DNA of 64,000 bases from Candidatus Oxydemutator sp. (GTDB lineage: Bacteria; Pseudomonadota; Gammaproteobacteria; Poriferisulfidales; Oxydemutatoraceae), in contig OZ241883.1 in NCBI GenBank assembly GCA_965203445.1, forward strand, positions 992,001-1,056,000. The letters are read 5' to 3'. The notes beneath the pieces are model-generated. The model had not been told where the DNA came from. It was given only the letters and a program-made list of their open reading frames with translations, and did no database searches. Of the stretch, positions 35,508 to 56,123 are shown piece by piece; positions within the stretch are counted from its first letter, which is position 1, and each line of letters starts with the position of its first letter. The translations under genes and the position numbers were made by a program.

Positions 35508-36497
35508 TCATGGGTTTTCGTTCAGTCGCTCGATGATTGTATTCGCCAGGTTTCTGAAATCTTCGTGGCAACTCGCCGCGGCCCTTTGATAGGCGCCTAT
35601 GACGCCGTCGGCGGGCTTCAACCGGAACATCGGCTTGTTCGCCTCCTGCGCCATCGGCATCAGCGCGCTGTAGTCCTTCAAATGCGCCAGAAGATTGCGG
35701 TCGTCGGCGTCCTCGCCGGAAGGTGCGCCCGCCTCTCCGATGACACACCTGGCGTACTCCCCCGGCATCTTTCCAATCCAATGCTCGAACGCCATGGCGG
35801 GTCGGTCCAGTCTGATTGTACGATGCATGACAATGTAGCCGAGCGGTGCCATTCTGCCCGCCGGCAGCTCGATGTCCAACTCCGGCGGCTTCTGCCCGAT
35901 GCGCTTGCGCCAATCATCCCGCCATTTTCTCAAGGTAGGCCCGACGTTGCGCAACCCCTGCAAGGAAAATAAATCCGGGGCCAGCGGCATCACCACGTGA
36001 TCGCTGGCGATCAGGGCGGTTCGGTTGATCGCTCCCAGATTCGGGCCGACGTCCACCAACGCCAGATCCGCCTCGAATTGTTCCCCGGCGCGCGCGATCA
36101 GTCGTGCGAAAGCAGTCGTAACGCGAAAGGCGCGCGCGTCGCCGTCCAGACATGCAGGCCACTGTGTGGAGAGTTCCTCTTCCCGTTTGGAGAGGGCCAA
36201 GTCGCCCACCAATAGTCCGATGCGCTCGCTGACCTTCTCTACGTGGGGGGATTCGACAATGTCCCCGGTGCCCTCGAACAAGGGGGAGATACTTCCCTCG
36301 ATGGTTTTCCTGCCGTCGCCTCCCCATGTTTCTTCGGGTTTCTTCTCGCCTGAAAATGCCTCGCTCAGGCTGGCCTGGGGGTCCAGGTCCGCGCTTAAGA
36401 CACGGTGCCCAAGCTCATCCAGCATCCAGGCCAGATGATAGACAAGCGAAGTCGTGCCGACGCCGCCCTTGTTGTTAAAAAAAGCGATGGTCTTCAC
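35508..36497 (-). CDS. ParA-family ATPase with altered Walker A
   Basis: FFNNKGGVGTTS, DLDPQ, DVGPNLGAINR, PDLFSLQG; GTG overlaps the upstream stop. Confidence 0.85.
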   Translation of the reverse strand: MKTIAFFNNKGGVGTTSLVYHLAWMLDELGHRVLSADLDPQASLSEAFSGEKKPEETWGGDGRKTIEGSISPLFEGTGDIVESPHVEKVSERIGLLVGDLALSKREEELSTQWPACLDGDARAFRVTTAFARLIARAGEQFEADLALVDVGPNLGAINRTALIASDHVVMPLAPDLFSLQGLRNVGPTLRKWRDDWRKRIGQKPPELDIELPAGRMAPLGYIVMHRTIRLDRPAMAFEHWIGKMPGEYARCVIGEAGAPSGEDADDRNLLAHLKDYSALMPMAQEANKPMFRLKPADGVIGAYQRAAASCHEDFRNLANTIIERLNENP

Positions 36498-37684
36498 GGT
36501 CGCCTCCCGATGGTGGCGAAGACGAACGTGTCTCCGACGGCGAAGTCGGGCGGCGGATTGCCGTTTTCCGCAAGTGCCCGACGCGCCGTCGGGATGCCCC
36601 TCCCGAAGCGCTCCATAAAGCCCTGGCTTTTCATGGCCTCGGCGATGGATGGATTGCGGTAACTGGTGACGTCTGGCTTTCCGAAATTCTGTTTTGTCAC
36701 CTCTCCGTACACGCTGCCCGGGCTGCTGATTTGTACGCGGTCGTTGAACCACGTGATCCGCACGGGCGTGTTCGAGTTCTGATAATTCCGGTGGATGACC
36801 GCGTTGCGGACGAGTTCGCGCAGCGCTTCCAGCGGATAGTCCGGTTTCTCGATGTTCCTGTCCTCTCGCGTGTCCAGTACAGTAGAAACTTGCAGTTTCA
36901 GCAGTTGATCCACCTCGCGCAGCTGATCCGGAAGCGCACCTTTCAGTTCGGACTGATCCACAATGGGGGAAGGGATCTCCTCGCCGTCGTAGCGAACGAA
37001 CTGGATGTAGGCACCGGGGAACCAGATGCGCGGATTTTTGCCGAGCATGAGAATCGCCGTGACGGTCGGCGTGCCGTCTCGCGTGACAAGACGCAACGCC
37101 TTCATCTGCTCGCGTTCATCGCGCTCGTTCTGCGCCAACACCTCGGGGGAAACCGTGGCGGGGAGATACTCGTTCCTGAACCTCTGCACGTCCAAGTCGT
37201 CTTCGACGGTGGCGCCGGCAACGCCTTGCATGTCGTAGGGAACGTTCCCCCAGCGTCTCTTTTCGGTGAGACGGCGCTCCTCCTCAGGGTTGGCCTGGGC
37301 GCGGCGCGGGCCGGTGCGAATCCAGCAACGGCCATCCATTTTTACCGGCGGATTGTCCGACGGTGCCACCTGGATTACCGCAACGTCGCAACCGCCCAAG
37401 TTTCTTTTGGCAACCTCCATAACGGGGAAAGGAAGTATCTTGCCGTCGCCCCGAAGCCCGCCGAGTTTTTGCAGCAGCTCATCATCAACGACCACGTCGG
37501 CACAACGCCCGTCATCTTCCAACCCGACAAAGAGAATGCCCGGCTTCTCGTGGCGCGGCAAGTCGTTGGCGAACGCGCAAATCGCCTTCCGCAGCTTGTC
37601 CAGATCTTTCACCGCACCCGTGAACTCCACACGGTCGCTTTCGCCGCCTTCGATCAGGCGTATAAGTTCTTCATCGTTCAGCAT
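36494..37684 (-). CDS. AlbA_2 plus HATPase_c_4 domain protein
   Basis: ESDRVEF, ICAFANDL, RELVRNAVIHRNY, YRNP.IA, ERFGRGI. Confidence 0.85.
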   Translation of the reverse strand: MLNDEELIRLIEGGESDRVEFTGAVKDLDKLRKAICAFANDLPRHEKPGILFVGLEDDGRCADVVVDDELLQKLGGLRGDGKILPFPVMEVAKRNLGGCDVAVIQVAPSDNPPVKMDGRCWIRTGPRRAQANPEEERRLTEKRRWGNVPYDMQGVAGATVEDDLDVQRFRNEYLPATVSPEVLAQNERDEREQMKALRLVTRDGTPTVTAILMLGKNPRIWFPGAYIQFVRYDGEEIPSPIVDQSELKGALPDQLREVDQLLKLQVSTVLDTREDRNIEKPDYPLEALRELVRNAVIHRNYQNSNTPVRITWFNDRVQISSPGSVYGEVTKQNFGKPDVTSYRNPSIAEAMKSQGFMERFGRGIPTARRALAENGNPPPDFAVGDTFVFATIGRRP

Positions 37685-37941: not shown

Positions 37942-39120
37942 CTATGCAAATTGCTTGTTCACGAGATACTCCTCGAGCTTCTCGACGTTCTTTATTTTCA
38001 TATTCAATATGTCGGCCGTCTCATATTCACCAATTTTGTTCTGATACCGGGCTTGCAGCACGTTGTGCAAAAATGCTTTTCCCCAGTAGGACAGCTGGTT
38101 CGAGTAATAATCCCCGCCACCTTCTTTGGGGTAGCCACCGCCCGCTTCCGAACGACTTGCCATCAAGGATTCTTTCATATCTGTATAAACGCCGTAAGGA
38201 ATTAAATCGGCTGACATACATCTCACCAGGAACATCGAGGAACTGACTTTGTAGCACTTTGCCTGGTGGGTGTAAAAATCTTTATCGCTGATATTGCCCC
38301 TGGCTATCTGTTTTCTCAGATCATCCTCCGGCACAAGCACGGCACCGGCAATATAGTCAATGTCATGCTCATCCCCTTGTCGGGAAATTTCCAGTCCGTC
38401 CTTGGCCAGAGTCACGCTGCTCTCTCCACGCAACAGGTGAACCCATTCGTGCATCATGGTGAAAATTTGCCGGCCTTTGGCCTCTTTGCTATCGAGGCAG
38501 ATAACGGGAAACTCCTCATCGTAGAGACAAAATCCGGATATATGCTCCGACTGGAATGGCCAGCGAAAGACAAAAATTCCCTGCCCCTCTATCGCATCTC
38601 TCCAGGCCCAAAGCGCGTCCATGTAGGTGTTCCACTCTTGCTGCTCCTCTAAAGAGACGTTCAGAAATTTTTCACTTCGCAATTCCGAGACCAGGGATTC
38701 AATGTCTCCGTTCACGGGCAAGTTCAGATTTGTGTGCAGCGGATGCGATACAGGGTTAATCCCGTCATTGATTTCCTTCAATGCCATTTGCGTGGCCTGC
38801 ACCCGGTGGATGACGTTCAGGGTTTCAGGCGGGATCGAATCCAGGTCGAACCCGGGAACGCTTCTCAGTGAGGCGGCCGCGTCTTCAATTTCCGGCGGCT
38901 CCGGGAAGAAAAACACCGCAATCGGCACCTTGTAGCAATCTGCCAATTTCTCCAGCTGCGGGTAGGTCGGTGCTTTTCTGCCCGTCTCCCAATCGGTAAG
39001 AATCTCTTCAGACTTGATATGCAGCTTCCTGACAACGGCGACAGGGTCGTAGTTCATGCGCTCCCTGGCCCATTGCAAGACGGAAGGATTGATATTTTGT
39101 ACTGAGGCCCTTGCCATCAT
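37942..39120 (-). CDS. XRE-HTH plus ImmA/IrrE zinc metallopeptidase
   Basis: N-terminal HTH (WARE...WETG.KAPT..QL), RQIFTMMHEWVH HEXXH motif. Confidence 0.9.
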   Translation of the reverse strand: MMARASVQNINPSVLQWARERMNYDPVAVVRKLHIKSEEILTDWETGRKAPTYPQLEKLADCYKVPIAVFFFPEPPEIEDAAASLRSVPGFDLDSIPPETLNVIHRVQATQMALKEINDGINPVSHPLHTNLNLPVNGDIESLVSELRSEKFLNVSLEEQQEWNTYMDALWAWRDAIEGQGIFVFRWPFQSEHISGFCLYDEEFPVICLDSKEAKGRQIFTMMHEWVHLLRGESSVTLAKDGLEISRQGDEHDIDYIAGAVLVPEDDLRKQIARGNISDKDFYTHQAKCYKVSSSMFLVRCMSADLIPYGVYTDMKESLMASRSEAGGGYPKEGGGDYYSNQLSYWGKAFLHNVLQARYQNKIGEYETADILNMKIKNVEKLEEYLVNKQFA

Positions 39121-39551: not shown

Positions 39552-40055
39552 TCAGTTCTTTTCTCTTATTCGGATTGCTTCTTCTACTGCATTAGACAAA
39601 TGTTTAGAAATCCAAGCATAAATTTCTTTGCTGTTACTGCCCTGAGGGTTATAGCAATTGGCTATTGAGGATAATTTCCTCCCGCTTCCTCCATATTTTA
39701 TGTAATCAAGAGGGTTATCTCCTTGAAAGGATGTATATCCCGTTCGATCTTCCAGGCCGTGGATATGAATGCCAACAACGCCCATATTATCGTTCCACGC
39801 CTTAATTATTTCATAGTTTATCCATTTTCTGTTTGCGGTGTTGCTCCCGACAAGAACCACAGCGCATGACCTATAGTTCATCTGTTTGTTTATCCATCGC
39901 TTAATTGCTTCATTACCTCCTCCTTTAATCGTCTCCCAATCATTGTCAGAAACAGGATTATTGCCTTCAATCACACCTATATTGCGAACCTGCGATGCAC
40001 GCCAGCTATCCGGCTGATAGTGGAAGCTGTAAAACACTTGTCTTTTTGTTGCCAT
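39552..40055 (-). CDS. TIR domain protein (DUF1863 / ThsB-like)
   Basis: VFYSFHY, SCAVVLVG..TA.RKWINYEI with catalytic Glu, GVVGI.IH. Confidence 0.9.
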   Translation of the reverse strand: MATKRQVFYSFHYQPDSWRASQVRNIGVIEGNNPVSDNDWETIKGGGNEAIKRWINKQMNYRSCAVVLVGSNTANRKWINYEIIKAWNDNMGVVGIHIHGLEDRTGYTSFQGDNPLDYIKYGGSGRKLSSIANCYNPQGSNSKEIYAWISKHLSNAVEEAIRIREKN

Positions 40056-40066
40056 GTTCAGTCTCC

Positions 40067-40507
40067 TTATCTTCCTGCTTGTCGAGCAGCTTTTTCTATC
40101 CAGTCGCCCATGTTCTTGTAGCCATCATCTTTATTCCATAAGTAGAATGGATAGCCTTGGGGTATTTTGTCACATCGTTGGCTAGTATTCCTATCAAGAT
40201 CCTTGATTTTGCTTATGTCTATGCCCAAAAGTCCGTTGCCAATTTGGCGGCTTTTTTCAATTTCATATTTTACCCAACGACTATTGCAAGTATTTTGTCC
40301 GACCAAGACAACTGTTACAGAAGTGCCTATTAGTTGGTTATCAATCCAGTACTGGATTGCTCTATCGCCTTGTCTTTTAATTTCTTCAAAATCCGCTGCA
40401 TCTATAAAACCCGCGGCTTCTTTGCCTTGGGCAACCCAACTGTTTCTGACAACCATTGCCCTTGAAACATCATCTTTATACTTAAAACTGAAAAAGACTT
40501 TTCTCAT
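40067..40507 (-). CDS. TIR domain protein (DUF1863 / ThsB-like)
   Basis: KVFFSF.Y, TSVTVVLVG..T..SRWVKYEI, GLLGI. Confidence 0.9.
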   Translation of the reverse strand: MRKVFFSFKYKDDVSRAMVVRNSWVAQGKEAAGFIDAADFEEIKRQGDRAIQYWIDNQLIGTSVTVVLVGQNTCNSRWVKYEIEKSRQIGNGLLGIDISKIKDLDRNTSQRCDKIPQGYPFYLWNKDDGYKNMGDWIEKAARQAGR

Positions 40508-40526
40508 TATTCAATTCCTCCGAATT

Positions 40527-40937
40527 TTATTTGAGAATAAAAAACACTCCGAATACAAACAGAACTTCAATTCCATAGAATAGATTCAGCGTTACGGAGA
40601 ACATAGAAGCTATCCAGTTGCACTTCGGTTTGTTTTTATGTTTCATGACATTCATTGCAAAATCTGTAGTTTCTTGCTTTCTCATGTCATCATAAACTTT
40701 ACGAAACAATCGCTCTTGCCATAGAAAATAACCGTCTAAAATCCAGAAACCAGCTACAGGAACAAGAAATGTCAATATGATCCACTCTGACAGAGTCCCA
40801 CTCCGTACAATAAGAACTATTCCGGCGGCTAAAATAGTCATGCTCCAGCCTTTTATCAGAAAGGAGTCATGTCCCAAGCGATTGATAACGCCTTGTATCA
40901 TCTCCAAATGTTTTATTACTTGTTCTTTGCCGTTCAT
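40527..40937 (-). CDS. Small multi-pass membrane protein (candidate effector)
   Basis: HLEMIQGVINRL...SFLIKGW, about 3 hydrophobic helices, WILDGYFL.QERLFR. Confidence 0.75.
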   Translation of the reverse strand: MNGKEQVIKHLEMIQGVINRLGHDSFLIKGWSMTILAAGIVLIVRSGTLSEWIILTFLVPVAGFWILDGYFLWQERLFRKVYDDMRKQETTDFAMNVMKHKNKPKCNWIASMFSVTLNLFYGIEVLFVFGVFFILK

Positions 40938-40959
40938 TTGAGACCTCTACCGTACATGG

Positions 40960-41628
40960 TTAATCGGATATAGTTTTCACAACATCGTAATCTTCGATAT
41001 TGCCATTTATATATTCTGCCTTTTTAAGATACTTCTCACTATCTGCTATAAAGTCATACCATTTTACTGAATCTATGTATGAATGGAATCCAGTGTAAAC
41101 TGTTCTAGGCGAATGATATTTACAATCTGAAAAGGTCGGAGCTTTCACATTGAACATGTTGTTCCTTAGTATTCCGAACAAAGTGTCTATTTTCAATGTT
41201 CTGCAATTACAGTGGAGGCAAGTATTTTCTTTAAGATAGTACCTGTAATCAGAGTTATAGTCTGGCAACACTATCGCCAGCATCGCATTGGCGTGACTTG
41301 TGCGGTCATTGCGTGAAATTTCTTTGAGAGAGTATGAAACTTCCCAAGGTATCCACTGGTCAGATTCGTTGTTATAAGGATCTTTCATACAGGGCGAAAT
41401 AAAAACGAGTGTCATACTGCTATCGTATATCTTATCTTTCAGATGAGTGGCAATAGTTTCATCTTTGAATTGGCTCAGGTCTTCATTGCCTTCTCCCTTG
41501 TAGATTTCATCTCCTTTGAATAACTTGATTAACTCGTCCACATAGCCGCGTGCAGTAGTGGCTATACCGTTCAAAGGTGCAACGGTGCTATCGTTATGCT
41601 TGTACGTAACGAATATCTTTCTAGCCAT
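40960..41628 (-). CDS. TIR domain protein (DUF1863 / ThsB-like) with C-terminal extension
   Basis: RKIFVTYKH, IYDSSMTLVFIS, QWIPWEVSYSL with catalytic Glu; CLHCNC in the extension. Confidence 0.85.
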   Translation of the reverse strand: MARKIFVTYKHNDSTVAPLNGIATTARGYVDELIKLFKGDEIYKGEGNEDLSQFKDETIATHLKDKIYDSSMTLVFISPCMKDPYNNESDQWIPWEVSYSLKEISRNDRTSHANAMLAIVLPDYNSDYRYYLKENTCLHCNCRTLKIDTLFGILRNNMFNVKAPTFSDCKYHSPRTVYTGFHSYIDSVKWYDFIADSEKYLKKAEYINGNIEDYDVVKTISD

Positions 41629-41640
41629 TTTTATTTTCCT

Positions 41641-41724
41641 TTACTCCCCCCACCACAAATAGGGTTTGAGCAGGGCTATGAAGTGTTGTTTTTCTTCTGC
41701 GGTCATTTTGGCGGGGTTGATTTT
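41641..41724 (-). repeat. 84-bp copy of the mod gene 3' end
   Basis: 80/84 identical to 43606-43689; encodes KINPAKMTAEEKQHFIALLKPYLWWGE*. Confidence 0.95.
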
Positions 41725-43605: not shown

Positions 43606-46230
43606 TTACTCCCCCCACCACAAATAGGGTTTGAGCAGGGTTATGAAGTGTTGTTTTTCTTCGGCGGTCATTTTAGCGGGGTTGGTTTTTTCGGTGGTGC
43701 CGTCGGCGAAGGTTACCTGGTCGGCGGTGCGGCGGCGGATGGGTTTGCCGAGGGCGTTGGAGAAGGATTCGGCGATGTCCAAGTCGGGGTACAGGTCGTG
43801 GAGGTTGATTTCGAGCCTTTCTTTGTTCACCACTTGGACGGCGTGGGCGAGTTTGTCGTCGTTGAAGAAGACGTATTGCTCGAACGGGGATTTGAGGCTG
43901 TCTATTTCTATTTGTTCGCCGTCTTTGTAGTGCGAGTTTTTGAGGGTTTCCTCGTATTGTTCCAGGGTGTAGTACTTGAGGCAGTGGCTGCTGCCTTCAC
44001 GCGATACAGGCTGGCCGTCTTTCCAGTCTTTGGAATATACGACTTTCTTGATGCGCGGGAGCAGGACGGTATGGAAGTAATCGCCCATTTCGACGAGCAG
44101 GTATTTGCGGTTGCCGCCGTCTTCTCTGTTCAGGTTGATGACGGCATGGGCGGTGGTGCCGGAACCGGCGAAAAAATCTAAAACCACCTCCTTATCCTCG
44201 TGAACGCAAGACTTTATACAGTCCTCAACGTTATAAATTGATTTTGGATAAGAAAAAGTGCCTGCTTTACCCATGATGGCGGTAAGAAGATTACTTCCAT
44301 GCACACCAGCGTTATACTTTTTGTCAGTCCAGTTACTAAAAATTGGTCGCCGTCGGTCAGTTTCCTCAATGAGTTGGTAAATGGACATACCATTTTTGCA
44401 GATAATGTTCCCTTTCTTATTTTCATTGAGAAAAGATTTGTAGGAACGACGCCATACACGTTCTGTTCCGTCCGTGCCAATGGGATATATGCGAATCCAC
44501 CCCTCAGATGTGTTTTCTTCAGGATAGTCAGCGCCCTGTGGAGGCTCTTCGGCACCCATGACCTTGAAATTTTTGGGGTTCACCAGGATCGCATAAAAGC
44601 TATTCGGACGGCCAATACGCAAATTACTTTCGGCTGTACCAGTTCGGACAAAGCCGCGCTCAGTCTGTCCTATGTCTTTCTTTTCTCCTCGTAGTATCTT
44701 TACATCCGGTGGGGTCATAAAAATCGCATACTCGTGGGTACAAGATATGTTTGTTCCCTCTAGTCCCGCTCCGGCCGGATGATGATTGACAACTACCATA
44801 TTCCGTTCCCACATTGGCAAGCAAATTTCCAAAAGGTGGGAAAGAAGTACCATTTCGGTATCATCAATTGCTGCAATAAAGACGCCTTCAGTCATTAAGG
44901 TGGATGCCGAATGAACGATTCTATTCTCCAGCAATGTTATCCATGAAGAATTTTTGTATCCGTTTTTGTAGGCAATTTCAGATGCGTCGGTGTTATACGG
45001 CGGATCAATATAAATGCACTTCACCTTCCCCCGATACCGCCTCTGCAAAGTGTTCAGCGCCTGCCAATTTTCGCTGTGCACGAGTTCGCCGTCCAGGGCT
45101 TCGTCCAGGTTGCCGAGGGCGTCTAAAATCTCCAGTTCCAAATCTTTGAAATGTCTGGTGTCCAGGGGGAGGTGTTGCCATTTTTCCTTCGCCCCTGCCC
45201 CTTTCCCAGAGGGAGATAAGTTGAATCCGTTCTCCACCATGCCCAGTTGGCGCCATTCTTTTGTCTGCGCTTTGATGCCCTTGTGTTCGGTGATTTTCTT
45301 CAGTAGTTTGGCGGGCAGTTTGTCCAGCGTCACCACGTAATGCACGCCGCGCACGAACTTCGGTTTTTCCCACGCGCGCCGCAGTTCATCCTCGAACTGG
45401 GCGATGAAGTCTATGACGTCGTAGGCGGTTTTCTGGATCGCCTGTAATTGCTTGACCCTTTCCGCCTCGAAGATGCTTTCCTCTCTGAACATGAATTGAT
45501 ACAGCCACAGGTCGAACTGCTCGCGCAGAAAGCCGCGCGCGTCCTTGTTGATAAAGAAGTCCACTTCGGTCTGCCCGCGGAAGACGCGAAAGGCCTTTTC
45601 CAGTTCATCCTCGCTCAGCCGCAGGCGGCTTTTGCGCGCCTGTCTGATAATGTCGTCGGACTTGGTCTTTTTTCCTTTCTCGGAGTAGGAGACTTTCAGG
45701 TGCAGAACCGGCCATCCGTCTGCGTCGTCCACTTTGTCGAACGCAAACACGAACTCGCGCTTTTCGTTGTTGCGCTTGTGCTCGATTTCGGTGGCGTCGA
45801 AGTAAAACCGCCTGATGTCTCCCAAGTGGTCGCGTTCGGGCAGCTTCACCGGCATCGAGCGCACCAGCACGTCGGACTTTACGTAGTAGAGCATCTGCGT
45901 TTTCCACGCCAGGGCCACGTCCTTGTCGTCGGCATAGACGCGCTCGTACGTCTTGGCGAAGGCCGGCAGGTGGCGGAAATAGATCGAGCCGCTCTCGCTG
46001 AAATAACGCCTGAAGAACGTCCATAGCTTGTCGAACAATTCCTCGCGGAAACTGGTTTCCGGTGCGGCGCGTCGGTCTATGGCCGCCATCAGCATGGGCT
46101 GGATGGACTCGAAGTATTGGCGCTTGATGCGCATCAGATTGACGAAGCCGGAGTCGCCTTCCACCTCGGCCCCGATGAACAGCGCCTCGAGCGCGTCTAA
46201 AAACCGTTTTTCTTTGTGTCCGATGGCCAT
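43606..46230 (-). CDS. mod: Type III R-M DNA methyltransferase Mod subunit
   Basis: SENWQAL, IYIDPPYNT before VLDFFAGSGTT (beta order) with an intervening TRD. Confidence 0.9.
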   Translation of the reverse strand: MAIGHKEKRFLDALEALFIGAEVEGDSGFVNLMRIKRQYFESIQPMLMAAIDRRAAPETSFREELFDKLWTFFRRYFSESGSIYFRHLPAFAKTYERVYADDKDVALAWKTQMLYYVKSDVLVRSMPVKLPERDHLGDIRRFYFDATEIEHKRNNEKREFVFAFDKVDDADGWPVLHLKVSYSEKGKKTKSDDIIRQARKSRLRLSEDELEKAFRVFRGQTEVDFFINKDARGFLREQFDLWLYQFMFREESIFEAERVKQLQAIQKTAYDVIDFIAQFEDELRRAWEKPKFVRGVHYVVTLDKLPAKLLKKITEHKGIKAQTKEWRQLGMVENGFNLSPSGKGAGAKEKWQHLPLDTRHFKDLELEILDALGNLDEALDGELVHSENWQALNTLQRRYRGKVKCIYIDPPYNTDASEIAYKNGYKNSSWITLLENRIVHSASTLMTEGVFIAAIDDTEMVLLSHLLEICLPMWERNMVVVNHHPAGAGLEGTNISCTHEYAIFMTPPDVKILRGEKKDIGQTERGFVRTGTAESNLRIGRPNSFYAILVNPKNFKVMGAEEPPQGADYPEENTSEGWIRIYPIGTDGTERVWRRSYKSFLNENKKGNIICKNGMSIYQLIEETDRRRPIFSNWTDKKYNAGVHGSNLLTAIMGKAGTFSYPKSIYNVEDCIKSCVHEDKEVVLDFFAGSGTTAHAVINLNREDGGNRKYLLVEMGDYFHTVLLPRIKKVVYSKDWKDGQPVSREGSSHCLKYYTLEQYEETLKNSHYKDGEQIEIDSLKSPFEQYVFFNDDKLAHAVQVVNKERLEINLHDLYPDLDIAESFSNALGKPIRRRTADQVTFADGTTEKTNPAKMTAEEKQHFITLLKPYLWWGE

Positions 46231-46784: not shown

Positions 46785-48494
46785 TCAGTTTTCGCCATTG
46801 GTTGAATCTCCCGAGATCTGCTTCAGGCGTTTTTTTCCTGCCTGCGTCAGGCGGTAGCGCTGCTTGCTGCTGCGCGGCTTGTCCGGGATGGTCATTTCGA
46901 TCAGGCCGGCTTGCAAGGCAGGGAGCAGATAGACTTCGCTGAAGTGCTCCCGGTGTTTCAGGCCAAGAGCCTCCTGGAGGCTTTGCCTGGTCATTTCCCC
47001 CGACAGCATCCGTAGTAGTCGGACTTCCGGAGTATCCTGCTCGGCGACTTGTCCGGTGACTTGCTCGGTGACTTGCTCGGTGACTTGCCCGGTGACTTGC
47101 CCGGTGACTTGCCCGGTGACTTGCCCGGTGACTTGCCCGGTCACTTGCTCGGTGACTTGCTCGGTGACTTGTCCGGTGGCTTGCTCGGTGGCTTGCTCGG
47201 CGACTTGTCCGGTGACTTGCTCGGTAGCTTGTCCGGTGACTTGTCCGGTGACTTGTCCGGTGACTCGTCCGGTGGCTTCCGGGGAGACTTCCGGGGGCAC
47301 TTGAGGGGTAGTTTGGGGGACGACTTCCGGGGTCGCCCGATCCTCCCCCGATACCTCCTGAATCTCCCGAACTTCTGGGTTCGGGCGGAAGGTGACGGTG
47401 ACGAAATTGCCGGCCACGAACTCCGGCTTCGGGCAGTCCTGCGCCTTCGCGCCGTCCCGGATGCGACGGATCCCCGTGCCCGCTTTCTCGATGAAGTCAA
47501 TGCGGTGGAGCAGGTCGGCGATGAGCGGGTTGCGGCGGATGCTCATGCGCCCGAGGTCGGTCAGGGCCAGGCCCTTGGGCAGGCCGCCGGGGCTGATCAC
47601 CTCGATCCGATCCGCGTAGACCTCGACGAAGACGTTGGCGCCGTCGAAGAACCAGTCGCGGTGCATGACCGCGTTGGTGATCGCCTCGCGCACCGCCTCC
47701 ATCGGGTACTCCGGGATGTTCTGTCGCCGCAAGCCCTCGATGCGGTAGGCGGTGCGGGTGTTGCGCTCGACGAAGCGCATGGCGTCCTCGACGTCGGCCA
47801 CGATGCCGCCGTCGAAGTCTTTGCGGTCCAGGATGTGCACCTTGTCGGTGCCCCGCCCCAGCAGGCAGGTGACGTACGCCTCCGGGAAGAAACGACGCAC
47901 TTTCCTGGCGAAGAAGAGCACGCCCGCGTTGCGGAAGAGCAGCCCGTCGCCGGTGCGCTCGGCGACCTCGATGTTGACCAGCACGTCCTCGACCGGCGGC
48001 TTTCCGGTGATGCCGGACAGGGCGAGCCAGGCGTCGAACTTCTCGCGGTCGAAATCCTCCGGGTAGCGGAAGCGGGGGCAGGGGGAGAGATCGAACCGGA
48101 TCACGCCCTCGGTGCGGAAGAAATCGCGGATCTTGTCACGGCTCATCTTCTGGGTCATCGCTCCTTGACGCCAGAAGAAGCCGTCTCTGCACTGCACCGG
48201 CTTGGCGTCGCTCTCGCGGACGTGGACCACGAGCACCCCGGCCACCGGCTCCACCAGCACCTTCACCGCCGGATCGCAGTTGCGGGCGATGTCCTGGACG
48301 CGGGCGCGCAGGGCGTTGGTGTCATTCGCCCCGATCACGTCGCCGTCGTCACGCACGCCGAGGAGGATCTTCCCGCCGACAGTGTTGGCCAGAGCCACGA
48401 CCTCGCGCGCGAACGACGAAGACAGGCGTTCCTTGAACTCCAGCGTGGTGCCTTCGCCCTGCTGGACAAGAATTGCAAGATCGGTCGGTTTCAT
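46785..48494 (-). CDS. AlbA_2 plus HATPase_c_4 protein with tetrapeptide-repeat linker and C-terminal HTH
   Basis: [58 protein letters not shown]. Confidence 0.85.
47037..47276 (-). repeat. 12-bp coding tandem repeat, about 20 units
   Basis: Units encode [VA][TA][GE]Q ([12 protein letters not shown]). Confidence 0.95.
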
Positions 48495-48584
48495 GAGAAT
48501 TTCCGCGCTCCTCCGATAACTGTATGTCTCAGCACTTCCCGGATACGTCCGGAAGCAACCTCGAGGACGCAATGTTATCGCATT

Positions 48585-55524: not shown

Positions 55525-56043
55525 CTATTCGGAGGGCTGCTTCAGGCTGCGGCGATAGAGGTCGAGCATTTCGTCGCCGAAACAGACGAAGATGATTTCG
55601 AGGTCGGCGGGCGCGTGTTCGGCGCAGGTTGCGACCGCGACCGCGGCCGCCCGCTCCGGCGGGTAGCCGTAGATGCCGCAGCTGATCGCCGGAAAAGCGA
55701 CGTGTCGCAGCGAGTGCTCCGCCGCCAGCCGCAGGCAGTCGCGGTAACAGGATGCGAGCAGTTCGGCTTCGCCTTTATCGCCGCCGCGCCAGACGGGGCC
55801 TACGGTATGGATGACGTGGCGTGCCGGCAGGCGGTGGCCGGACGTGATGCGTGCCTGGCCGGTCGGGCAGCCGCCGATGCGCCGGCATTCCTCGAGCAGT
55901 CCGGGCCCGGCGGCGCGGTGGATCGCGCCGTCCACGCCGCCGCCGCCCAACAGCGACTCGTTGGCCGCGTTGACGATGGCATCCACCGCGAGGGTCGTGA
56001 TGTCGCCCTCGAGCGCACGCCAGTTTCTGGTAACCGAACCCAT
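55525..56043 (-). CDS. Macro domain protein (O-acetyl-ADP-ribose deacetylase, YmdB-like)
   Basis: [41 protein letters not shown]. Confidence 0.9.
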
Positions 56044-56123
56044 CGCTACAAGTCCGCAAAGCGGGAGCAAATTATATGCCGTAATCCGCCCGCCTGCCCA
56101 CCGCCCTTGGTTCTGCAACCCGC

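Follow-up and report, generated by a model that had tools for sequence, protein, structure and literature searches.

Our analysis of a 64,000-nucleotide stretch of Candidatus Oxydemutator sp. (assembly GCA_965203445.1, contig OZ241883.1, positions 992,001 to 1,056,000; the whole stretch analyzed is hereafter called the window) identified a four-gene module that encodes three ThsB-type TIR proteins (TIR-A, TIR-B, and TIR-C) and a small transmembrane (TM) protein of the PDC-M50A family (Table 1). We propose that this module is a Thoeris-class system in which three ThsB sensors act on a ligand-gated PDC-M50A membrane effector, probably through a known cyclic ADP-ribose (cADPR) isomer, a reading to which we assign a probability of roughly 0.65. 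The module is catalogued as a candidate, and its mechanism is anticipated by types V and VII Thoeris. A previous sequence-only reading had taken the four genes for a TIR signaling system with a distinct membrane effector and three sensors. The view of the genes as one module stands, based on their layout and on the lack of any other effector; the claim that the system was undescribed falls, as the TM protein together with TIR-B and TIR-C matches PDC-M50, a candidate system catalogued in PADLOC.

The list of open reading frames (ORFs) reproduces the proposed layout of four minus-strand genes in the order TIR-A, TM, TIR-B, and TIR-C. The intergenic gaps calculated from the ORF coordinates are 22, 19, and 11 nt, which suggests co-translation of the four genes. 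The AT-richness attributed to the module also holds, with a guanine-cytosine (GC) content of 0.456, 0.389, and 0.393 in the 1-kb bins between 39 and 42 kb. The low-GC patch spans 39-45 kb (39-46% GC), compared with 60-70% over most of the window and ~65% in the genome, and because of this difference the patch probably corresponds to foreign DNA. The module sits within a type III restriction-modification (RM) locus, where ~8 kb of other genes separate Mod from Res.

Judged by their sequences, the three TIR proteins are bona fide ThsB relatives that retain the catalytic Glu. TIR-B (E = 7.6e-23) and TIR-C (E = 4.9e-27) match the Pfam ThsB_TIR family (PF08937), as does TIR-A (E = 3.2e-4; 21.5 bits, with a cut-off of 21.2). 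The PADLOC ThsB models match TIR-A at 3.7e-76 (PDLC00428, 1-219 of 219), TIR-B at 4.7e-57, and TIR-C at 3.6e-69; the PDC-M50B model matches TIR-B (5e-48) and TIR-C (1.5e-64), while TIR-A matches ThsB models only. Among solved structures, TIR-A aligns over residues 1-219, its Cys-rich extension included, with PDB chain 9vyl_A (1.8e-78), a Bacillus dafuensis protein annotated as "Putative cyclic ADP-D-ribose synthase TIR1." TIR-B matches the solved ThsB chains 9b7d_A and 6lhy_A (2.5e-24), and TIR-C matches chain 8wcf_A (7.1e-38) and the ThsB chain 6lhy_A (2.3e-21); for TIR-B and TIR-C taken together, the values for 6lhy_A and 9b7d_A range from 2e-21 to 2.6e-24. We found no useful literature for structures 9VYL or 8WCF.

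The W..[YW]E motif noted previously in all three TIR proteins is present and places the catalytic Glu at E96 (TIR-A), E82 (TIR-B), and E82 (TIR-C). In solved ThsB/TIR chains the aligned segment reads WV(R/K)YE or WIPWE; in B. cereus ThsB the catalytic Glu is E85. E96 is invariant across 29 aligned TIR-A homologues. The Cys-containing extension of TIR-A, also noted previously, is equally real: C137, C140, C142, and C169 are kept in 76-90% of the 29 homologues and in 9vyl_A, and this conservation points to a probable metal site in the extension.

The 136 amino acid TM protein has no Pfam or NCBIfam family (Pfam remained blank at E up to 10), and it matches the PADLOC PDC-M50A model at 3.5e-37 over residues 5-131, nearly its full length. 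Hydropathy analysis agrees with the earlier count of about three TM segments, centered at residues 34-43, 54-65, and 116-129, and the AlphaFold2 model (predicted local distance difference test, pLDDT, of 74.9) consists of helices 3-46, 53-86, and 115-135. There are 4 K/R residues in positions 1-30, 9 K/R versus 6 D/E residues in positions 68-110, and none in the 46-52 loop; according to the positive-inside rule, both conserved segments would thus be cytoplasmic. These segments are apparent in an alignment of 41 close homologues, in which 15 columns are invariant, nearly all belonging either to the N-terminal helix (H10, Q15, R20) or to the segment that follows the second TM helix (D68, Y70, L72, W73, E75, F78, Y82, T91, F93).

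The family to which this protein belongs is large. HMMER searches of 1.84 billion representatives retrieved 4771 clusters (50% identity) at E <= 0.001 and 2823 at E <= 1e-10, and a search of 90% clusters retrieved 2302 relatives at E <= 0.001. The 120 listed among these 2302 are all plain "hypothetical protein" entries to which no Pfam domain is assigned. Family members are present on 136 plasmids (Klebsiella 42, Escherichia 36, and others) and in 3 Vibrio phage records.

A predicted fold of four copies of the TM protein supports self-association. The median interaction prediction score from aligned errors (ipSAE) was 0.43 (runs 0.43, 0.17, and 0.48) versus 0.00 for the best control, with at least 65% of contacts in common between runs and a partner pLDDT of at least 73. 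This median passes the mark set for ipSAE, which 20 of 30 proteins solved as pairs attained in the calibration, compared with 1 of 23 solved as single chains, the calibration having been made with two copies and their own alignments and applying only roughly to a four-copy fold. The predicted interface is head-to-tail, as in rings or filaments, with residues 92-94 placed against residues 8, 11, and 86 of the next copy, and its residues fall among the most conserved positions of the 41-homologue alignment.

The sequence-only reading had called for a check of TM-TIR co-occurrence, and we analyzed the surroundings of the TM gene in two sets of relatives. The genome set comprised the best 80 of 236 relatives (53-75% identity), with ±6 kb around each TM gene; the metagenome set, independent and more divergent, comprised 80 loci out of 554 relatives, sampled from environments that include soil, sediment, and freshwater. 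TIR and TM genes were identified with profile hidden Markov models (HMMs) built from the loci themselves. The closest genome loci come mostly from metagenome-assembled genomes (MAGs) of many phyla, including Poribacteria, Binatia, and Nitrospirales, which are typical sponge symbiont groups. A same-strand TIR gene is located at no more than 150 nt from the TM gene in 48 of the 80 genome loci, within 3 kb in 4, and farther away in 3. Based on the chain criterion, 49/80 genome loci are TIR-linked, or 47/77 when only loci flanked on either side by 700 nt or more are counted. In the metagenome set, 49/80 loci are TIR-linked and 48/80 under the chain criterion, the latter figure becoming 27/36 when the same flank requirement is imposed.

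The number of adjacent TIR genes in the genome and metagenome loci, respectively, is one in 31 and 35, two in 17 and 11, and three in 1 and 2, so that two or three adjacent TIR genes are a recurring layout (18/49 and 13/48 of the TIR-linked loci). One locus (L011) has the gene order TIR-A, TM, TIR-B, and TIR-C identical to that of the window. The TIR proteins encoded beside the TM gene fall into four or more sequence families, among them a TIR-A-like one (22 loci), a TIR-B/C-like one (37 loci), and two clusters of the TIR_2 type. A TIR gene annotated by the depositors was also found next to the TM homologue, or ~0.5 kb away and on the opposite strand in Rhodococcus, in all seven records inspected, namely plasmids of Priestia, Klebsiella, E. 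coli, Vibrio chagasii, Rhodococcus, and the archaeon Haladaptatus, and a Vibrio tectivirus-like record. The identity of the TM homologues in these records was confirmed by HMM and by PADLOC; 3/3 plasmid TM homologues scanned correspond to PDC-M50A, and 4/4 neighboring TIR proteins match ThsB models. In E. coli, the TM-TIR pair is present on plasmids in 10 of 5426 complete genomes. The linkage between TM and TIR genes exceeds chance by far and involves different TIR families, two domains of life, plasmids, and phages.

Some of these records have additional features. The Vibrio tectivirus-like record (PQ189363.1; L184 1347-2635) is a 14-kb temperate Vinavirales element with the TIR-TM pair directly after the integrase gene; here the ThsB gene (annotated as Thoeris__ThsB_Global) overlaps the PDC-M50A homologue, and therefore the TIR-TM pair is also phage-borne. 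A gene encoding a HIT-domain protein adjoins the TIR gene in the Haladaptatus plasmid (L185 1895-3435) and lies between the TIR and TM genes in the Rhodococcus plasmid (L187 2965-4549). This gene could encode an accessory protein that processes or degrades the signal, and its presence beside TIR genes in two lineages is a hint of signal processing. An apparent in-frame read-through from TM to a TIR-C-like sequence (P0260, 227 amino acids) is probably a frameshift or assembly artifact rather than a true fusion.

Two further lines of evidence bear on how the TM protein may act. First, in two of the 150 listed TM-family representatives (P0246, 378 amino acids, and P0216, 362 amino acids) an N-terminal region of ~230-245 amino acids is fused to the TM module. 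In P0246 this region is a domain of the SLOG type, with a match to LD_cluster2 in Pfam (1.7e-15) and one below the cut-off to the Thoeris type III ThcA model of NCBIfam (1.2e-8), and that of P0216 resembles it by eye only and has no family match. As SLOG domains are the established ligand sensors of ThsA-type effectors, a point restated in a recent preprint (Yirmiya et al., bioRxiv 10.64898/2025.12.03.692087), a SLOG-TM fusion would unite the sensor and effector of the system in a single protein, and such fusions imply that the TM module is a ligand-controlled output. Longer TM ORFs on high-GC metagenome contigs (199-343 amino acids; L102, L103, L117, L119, L148, L156, and L172) were also considered as SLOG fusions and rejected, their N-terminal extensions being read as ORF-calling artifacts because only the C-terminal ~125-145 residues align to P0246/P0216. 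Second, TIR-A homologues with 52-59% identity are located directly 3' of annotated SIR2-family genes on 3/4 inspected plasmids (485 amino acids in Paenibacillus larvae, 482 in Cupriavidus, and 315 in a B. cereus plasmid), whereas in V. chagasii and L. plantarum the neighbor of a TIR-A homologue (45-50% identity) is the TM protein. The TIR-A clade thus appears to swap effector partners, SIR2 or TM.

We searched the complete genome (2.38 Mb, single contig, 100% complete) for known Thoeris effectors. There was no match to DUF2270 (PF10028) at E up to 1, none to ThcA (NF058525) or to caspase Peptidase_C14, and none to STALD SLOG or LD_cluster2, these last two being weak negatives as control genomes were also blank. 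The earlier statement that no ThsA, TM-Macro, or caspase-like effector accompanies the TIR genes thus extends from the window to the genome, with that qualification for STALD and LD_cluster2. With regard to type I Thoeris, the genome has no STALD match and no SIR2 protein of ThsA size, its sole SIR2_2 match being a 1432 amino acid ORF located 80 kb outside the window. For type II, the TM protein has no Macro match; the Macro match in the window (55525-56118) belongs to a macrodomain ORF, read as soluble, that stands by itself next to groEL and shows no extended hydrophobic segment on visual inspection. A SLOG domain of the type III kind occurs only in the distant fused relative P0246, and the caspase-like protease of type IV is absent from the genome. 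Two general features of Thoeris are present, a ThsB-type TIR with a catalytic Glu and a conserved non-TIR partner in the same operon. Further TIR-positive ORFs of 451, 521, 440, and 1135 amino acids are encoded elsewhere in the genome (G000:C1:909981, 917372, and 1209095-1217624), and the 1432 amino acid SIR2_2 ORF lies ~7 kb from a TIR-positive ORF, in what may be another TIR/SIR2 island.

From these data we infer the following scheme, which covers how a signal would be made and what it would be, where it would bind, and how a pore and defense would result. The module would be an abortive-infection system of the Thoeris class, carried by horizontally acquired low-GC DNA within the type III RM locus. 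The three ThsB-type TIR proteins would act as alternative phage sensors, multiple ThsB genes being reported to widen the phage range, and once triggered they would convert NAD+ into a signal of the cyclic ADP-ribose type. The sequence-only reading had raised a different second messenger, for which we found no support: with the TIR-A clade following SIR2 genes and TIR-B/C being similar to type I ThsB, it is more economical to assume one of the known cADPR isomers. Since the SIR2 partners of the TIR-A clade are ThsA-like, and again given the type I resemblance of TIR-B/C, 3'cADPR would be the most likely signal. The PDC-M50A protein would then read the signal without a separate sensor domain, its N-terminal helix and basic post-TM2 loop, both presumably cytoplasmic, meeting at the predicted protomer-protomer interface; nearly all invariant residues (H10, Q15, R20, D68, E75, R76, R79, Y82, R86, T91, and F93) lie in these two segments. 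Finally, ligand binding would alter a homo-oligomer shaped like a ring or filament, and the resulting breach of the membrane would leave the infected cell unable to support the phage.

Several observations weigh against this proposal. Homology of the TM protein to any validated effector cannot be demonstrated: a Foldseek search of the TM model against the PDB returned 0 matches at E <= 0.001 (best E 4.3), and a profile search of PDB sequences with the TM family returned 0 matches at E <= 10. Comparison of the TM family with DUF2270 by hhalign gave probabilities of 3.4% and 11%, the DUF2270 alignment having 6 sequences, which makes it a weak test, and comparison with 8xMP gave 31.6% (6-sequence alignment) and 2.5% (larger alignment). 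As for self-association, one of the three four-copy runs scored just 0.17, and only four copies were folded. To the same side belong the TM genes that have no TIR gene within ~6 kb, which are 25/80 in the genome set and a quarter to a third of loci overall. The neighbors in these TIR-less loci are heterogeneous and include no common partner (TPR 6, AAA_21 5, HD 4, FRG 4, and PIN 4 of 118 proteins). In the locus of the closest homologue (L001; 74% identity), the TM gene stands alone between Mod and Res genes orthologous to those of the window (Mod 57%, Res 54-68% identity). Of five genomes with TIR-less TM loci, three have a ThsB_TIR elsewhere, one has TIR_2 only, and one (G154) has neither, and therefore the TM protein can persist without a detectable TIR. 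These orphan copies could be remnants, effectors activated in trans, or a sign of an independent role.

The orphan copies are also an argument for a first alternative, in which the TM protein is an autonomous or promiscuous membrane module, either an abortive-infection gene in its own right or a general effector that non-TIR sensors also use, and travels with TIR genes in defense islands while the TIR proteins act alone, for example as NAD+-depleting enzymes. We consider this unlikely. The solitary TM gene of the closest homologue, the one TM-bearing genome without a PF08937 or PF13676 match, and the recurrence of AAA_21 ATPases and FRG proteins nearby are what such a module would leave, but same-strand TIR adjacency occurs in about 60% of the 160 loci and in three quarters (27/36) of the well-flanked metagenome loci, a TIR gene is beside or near the TM gene in every one of the annotated records, which cover six genera plus a phage, and the TIR-less loci share no single conserved alternative partner. 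In addition, the short gaps of the window module suggest co-translation and the SLOG fusions imply a ligand-controlled output, both of which speak against an independent passenger. With regard to the loci themselves, Mod and Res of L001 (3221-9394) are each split over several frames, reflecting frameshifts or assembly errors; FRG-domain proteins (Pfam FRG, 2.4e-13; PADLOC PDC-S15) near the TM gene number 28 and occur in 18 of loci L001-L080, including L013 and L024; and AAA_21 ATPases of the HEC-01A type also recur near the TM gene in MAG loci.

A second alternative concerns type V Thoeris, a validated system that, according to the preprint describing it, combines ThsB with ThsF/DUF2270 and uses 3'cADPR as its signal (Yirmiya et al., bioRxiv 10.64898/2025.12.03.692087). 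ThsF is described there as a protein with three membrane helices that forms a circular homo-oligomer with basic pockets between protomers and is activated by 3'cADPR. The window module could then be a divergent type V system, with the TM protein a remote ThsF/DUF2270 homologue missed by the Pfam model. The layout is alike, with a cytoplasmic helix ahead of the first two TM helices and a conserved basic helix between these and the third; the relatives of the TIR proteins suggest systems of the 3'cADPR type, and 12 of 132 diverse TM-family members weakly match DUF2270 (best E 0.0043). Against this, neither the window protein nor 7 homologues match DUF2270 at E up to 10, the genome has no DUF2270 match, the hhalign probabilities are low, with the caveat of 6 sequences, and weak matches to DUF3278 are more frequent (20/132), with 8xMP close behind (9/132). 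We therefore regard membership in type V as improbable, the 12/132 weak matches leaving open a very distant link between the TM and DUF2270 families. Homology to DUF3278 was rejected as well, all matches being below threshold (2/8 homologues; 20/132 members).

It is very improbable, in our view, that the TM protein is a regulator or anchor rather than the killer, tethering the TIR proteins or restraining their toxicity in the manner of an antitoxin. Its small size, its lack of an enzymatic domain, and the position of its gene amid TIR genes would suit such a role, but the TM family pairs with at least four TIR families, as would be expected of a shared output more than of a specific binder, no TIR partner domain is present in the SLOG-TM fusions, and orphan TM genes persist without TIR genes. 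Finally, the five further ThsB_TIR-positive ORFs and the 1432 amino acid SIR2_2 ORF outside the window raise the idea that the TIR proteins signal to an effector encoded elsewhere, with the TM gene a bystander, which is scarcely credible as the complete genome has no STALD, ThcA, LD_cluster2, DUF2270, or caspase match, the SIR2_2 ORF, at a distance of about 120 kb, is threefold larger than ThsA, and the TM-TIR linkage is conserved across phyla.

The genes around the module are listed in Table 1. The PtuA-like ATPase gene ends at 41724, 95 nt upstream of TIR-A; it was considered as a component of the system and rejected, since a homologue is present in 0/80 related loci, and it is likely a separate embedded defense gene. 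The ATPase has a C-terminal extension of ~200 amino acids with a faint match of the retron Ec67 endonuclease type, and PtuB is absent. A 595 amino acid protein encoded beyond Mod (46785-48572, minus strand) contains, in its translation, a long run of near-perfect four-residue repeats (VTGQ/VTEQ type), preceded by an N-terminus that resembles AlbA_2 and followed by a C-terminus that resembles an HTH. A promoter scan found promoter-like sites at chance level (7 found versus 6.6 expected), and 10/10 terminator-like sites are on the plus strand, so they mark no operon boundary for the minus-strand module.

Table 1. Genes of the four-gene module and of the surrounding type III RM locus (positions within the window; HTH, helix-turn-helix).
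Feature	Position	Strand	Description
TIR-A (222 aa)	40960..41628	-	ThsB-type TIR, catalytic E96, C-terminal extension with conserved Cys cluster
TM protein (136 aa), proposed effector	40527..40937	-	Three-helix membrane protein, PDC-M50A family
TIR-B (146 aa)	40067..40507	-	ThsB-type TIR, catalytic E82
TIR-C (167 aa)	39552..40055	-	ThsB-type TIR, catalytic E82
Mod gene	46230..43606	-	PADLOC MTase_III 5.5e-197
PtuA-like ABC ATPase, 625 aa	41724-43601	-	PADLOC PtuA 2.8e-33; AAA_21/AAA_15
HTH + IrrE/M78 protein	37942-39120	-	PADLOC RmrA 5.8e-19; NCBIfam spr1629-type antitoxin 1.7e-7
AlbA_2-like protein, 396 aa	36494-37684	-	Assigned by eye; no NCBIfam match
ParA/MinD-like ATPase	35508-36752	-	Walker motif by eye
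Helicase/Res-like gene, 994 aa	35431..32447	-	Type III RM partner

If our proposal is confirmed, the Thoeris repertoire would gain an abundant family of effectors that neither Pfam nor NCBIfam includes, and its presence on E. coli/Klebsiella conjugative plasmids, archaeal plasmids, and a temperate Vibrio phage would bear on plasmid and phage ecology well beyond the sponge-type metagenome bacteria that account for most of the closest relatives of the window copy. With 136 amino acids, the TM protein would rank with the smallest immune effectors gated by a ligand, and it would offer a tractable system for studying how a membrane assembly that has no dedicated sensor domain is opened by a cADPR-type signal. 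The orphan copies also pose the question of whether Thoeris effectors can be activated in trans. About a third of TM genes have no nearby TIR gene and one genome has no detectable TIR, so PDC-M50A may also be a shared hub effector, with activation in trans, other sensors, or an as yet undescribed signal as conceivable triggers. In this broader and speculative picture, to which we give little credence at present, PDC-M50A would be a widespread minimal "sensor-less" effector that reads TIR-made nucleotides at a cytoplasmic pocket between protomers. The preprint on type V Thoeris has 29 putative effector types and 18 unverified effectors, and also names a ThsJ (Yirmiya et al., bioRxiv 10.64898/2025.12.03.692087); if the family is one of these 18, the window module would be merely a well-annotated instance with three sensors.

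Among catalogued systems, the closest is PDC-M50, in which A is a small membrane protein and B a TIR protein, and the window encodes A and B proteins side by side. PDC-M50 is a two-gene candidate, whereas the window module has three TIR genes from two ThsB subfamilies. The PDC systems, 145 in number, are untested candidates that "guilt by embedding" yielded from genes lying within BREX, DISARM, and type I RM loci (Payne et al., bioRxiv 10.1101/2024.01.29.577857), and like these founding examples the window module is embedded in an RM locus. We found no paper naming or testing PDC-M50, and the name is absent from the main text of that same preprint (bioRxiv 10.1101/2024.01.29.577857). The module resembles type I Thoeris in that TIR-B and TIR-C match solved ThsB chains, and differs from it in having no ThsA.

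The nearest named cluster of the TM protein by language-model features is 8xMP, or "RipA family octameric membrane protein" (PF24838; 0.87, 179 shared). The order of helices is the same in 8xMP and the window protein, which has no Pfam match and thus lies outside the 8xMP family as defined; we found no paper describing 8xMP. The same genome encodes a true 8xMP protein (149 amino acids; PF24838, 4.5e-31), whose gene follows a TIR fusion with overlapping stop and start (G000:C1:1440886-1443496). This TIR protein (383 amino acids) is fused to a phage SPP1 gp7/MuF-like domain (TIGR01641, 1.1e-18), and a Clp-fold "SDH" serine protease is encoded next to the 8xMP pair (locus L091: 326-1477, 1477-1926, and 2085-2936); PADLOC has no model for the 8xMP protein.

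Type VII Thoeris (ThsB and ThsH/SLATT, with canonical cADPR as the signal) and the SLATT effectors of CBASS are also membrane-spanning and associated with SLOG or TIR domains. The name SLATT refers to SLOG association, and the SLOG-TM fusions of the PDC-M50A family follow the same logic. The effector of the window module lies outside SLATT: the protein has no SLATT match at E up to 10, and SLATT is absent from the 25 families listed for the 132 family members, a list sorted by member count, so that at most 1 of 132 could match. Unlike SLATT, the PDC-M50A family has three helices with a conserved post-TM2 helix. A preprint on animal TIR domains (10.64898/2026.04.20.719644) also mentions type VII Thoeris. 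In the literature on ThsF, ThsH, and types V and VII, we found nothing that bears on the PDC-M50A family beyond the type V preprint itself.

Finally, the sequence-only reading had proposed a distinct membrane effector, and the idea of a small three-helix membrane effector in Thoeris had already been validated for ThsF/DUF2270, another family, as stated in the type V preprint. The window effector is not detectably DUF2270, which sets the module apart from type V, and it shares with ThsF a small three-helix architecture with no separate sensor domain, a predicted homo-oligomeric state, and conserved basic interface surfaces. The TIR proteins, as in type V, come from clades that also serve SIR2-SLOG systems. 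Thus, although its TM protein belongs to neither of the effector families that define types V and VII Thoeris, the module appears, by analogy, to work like both.

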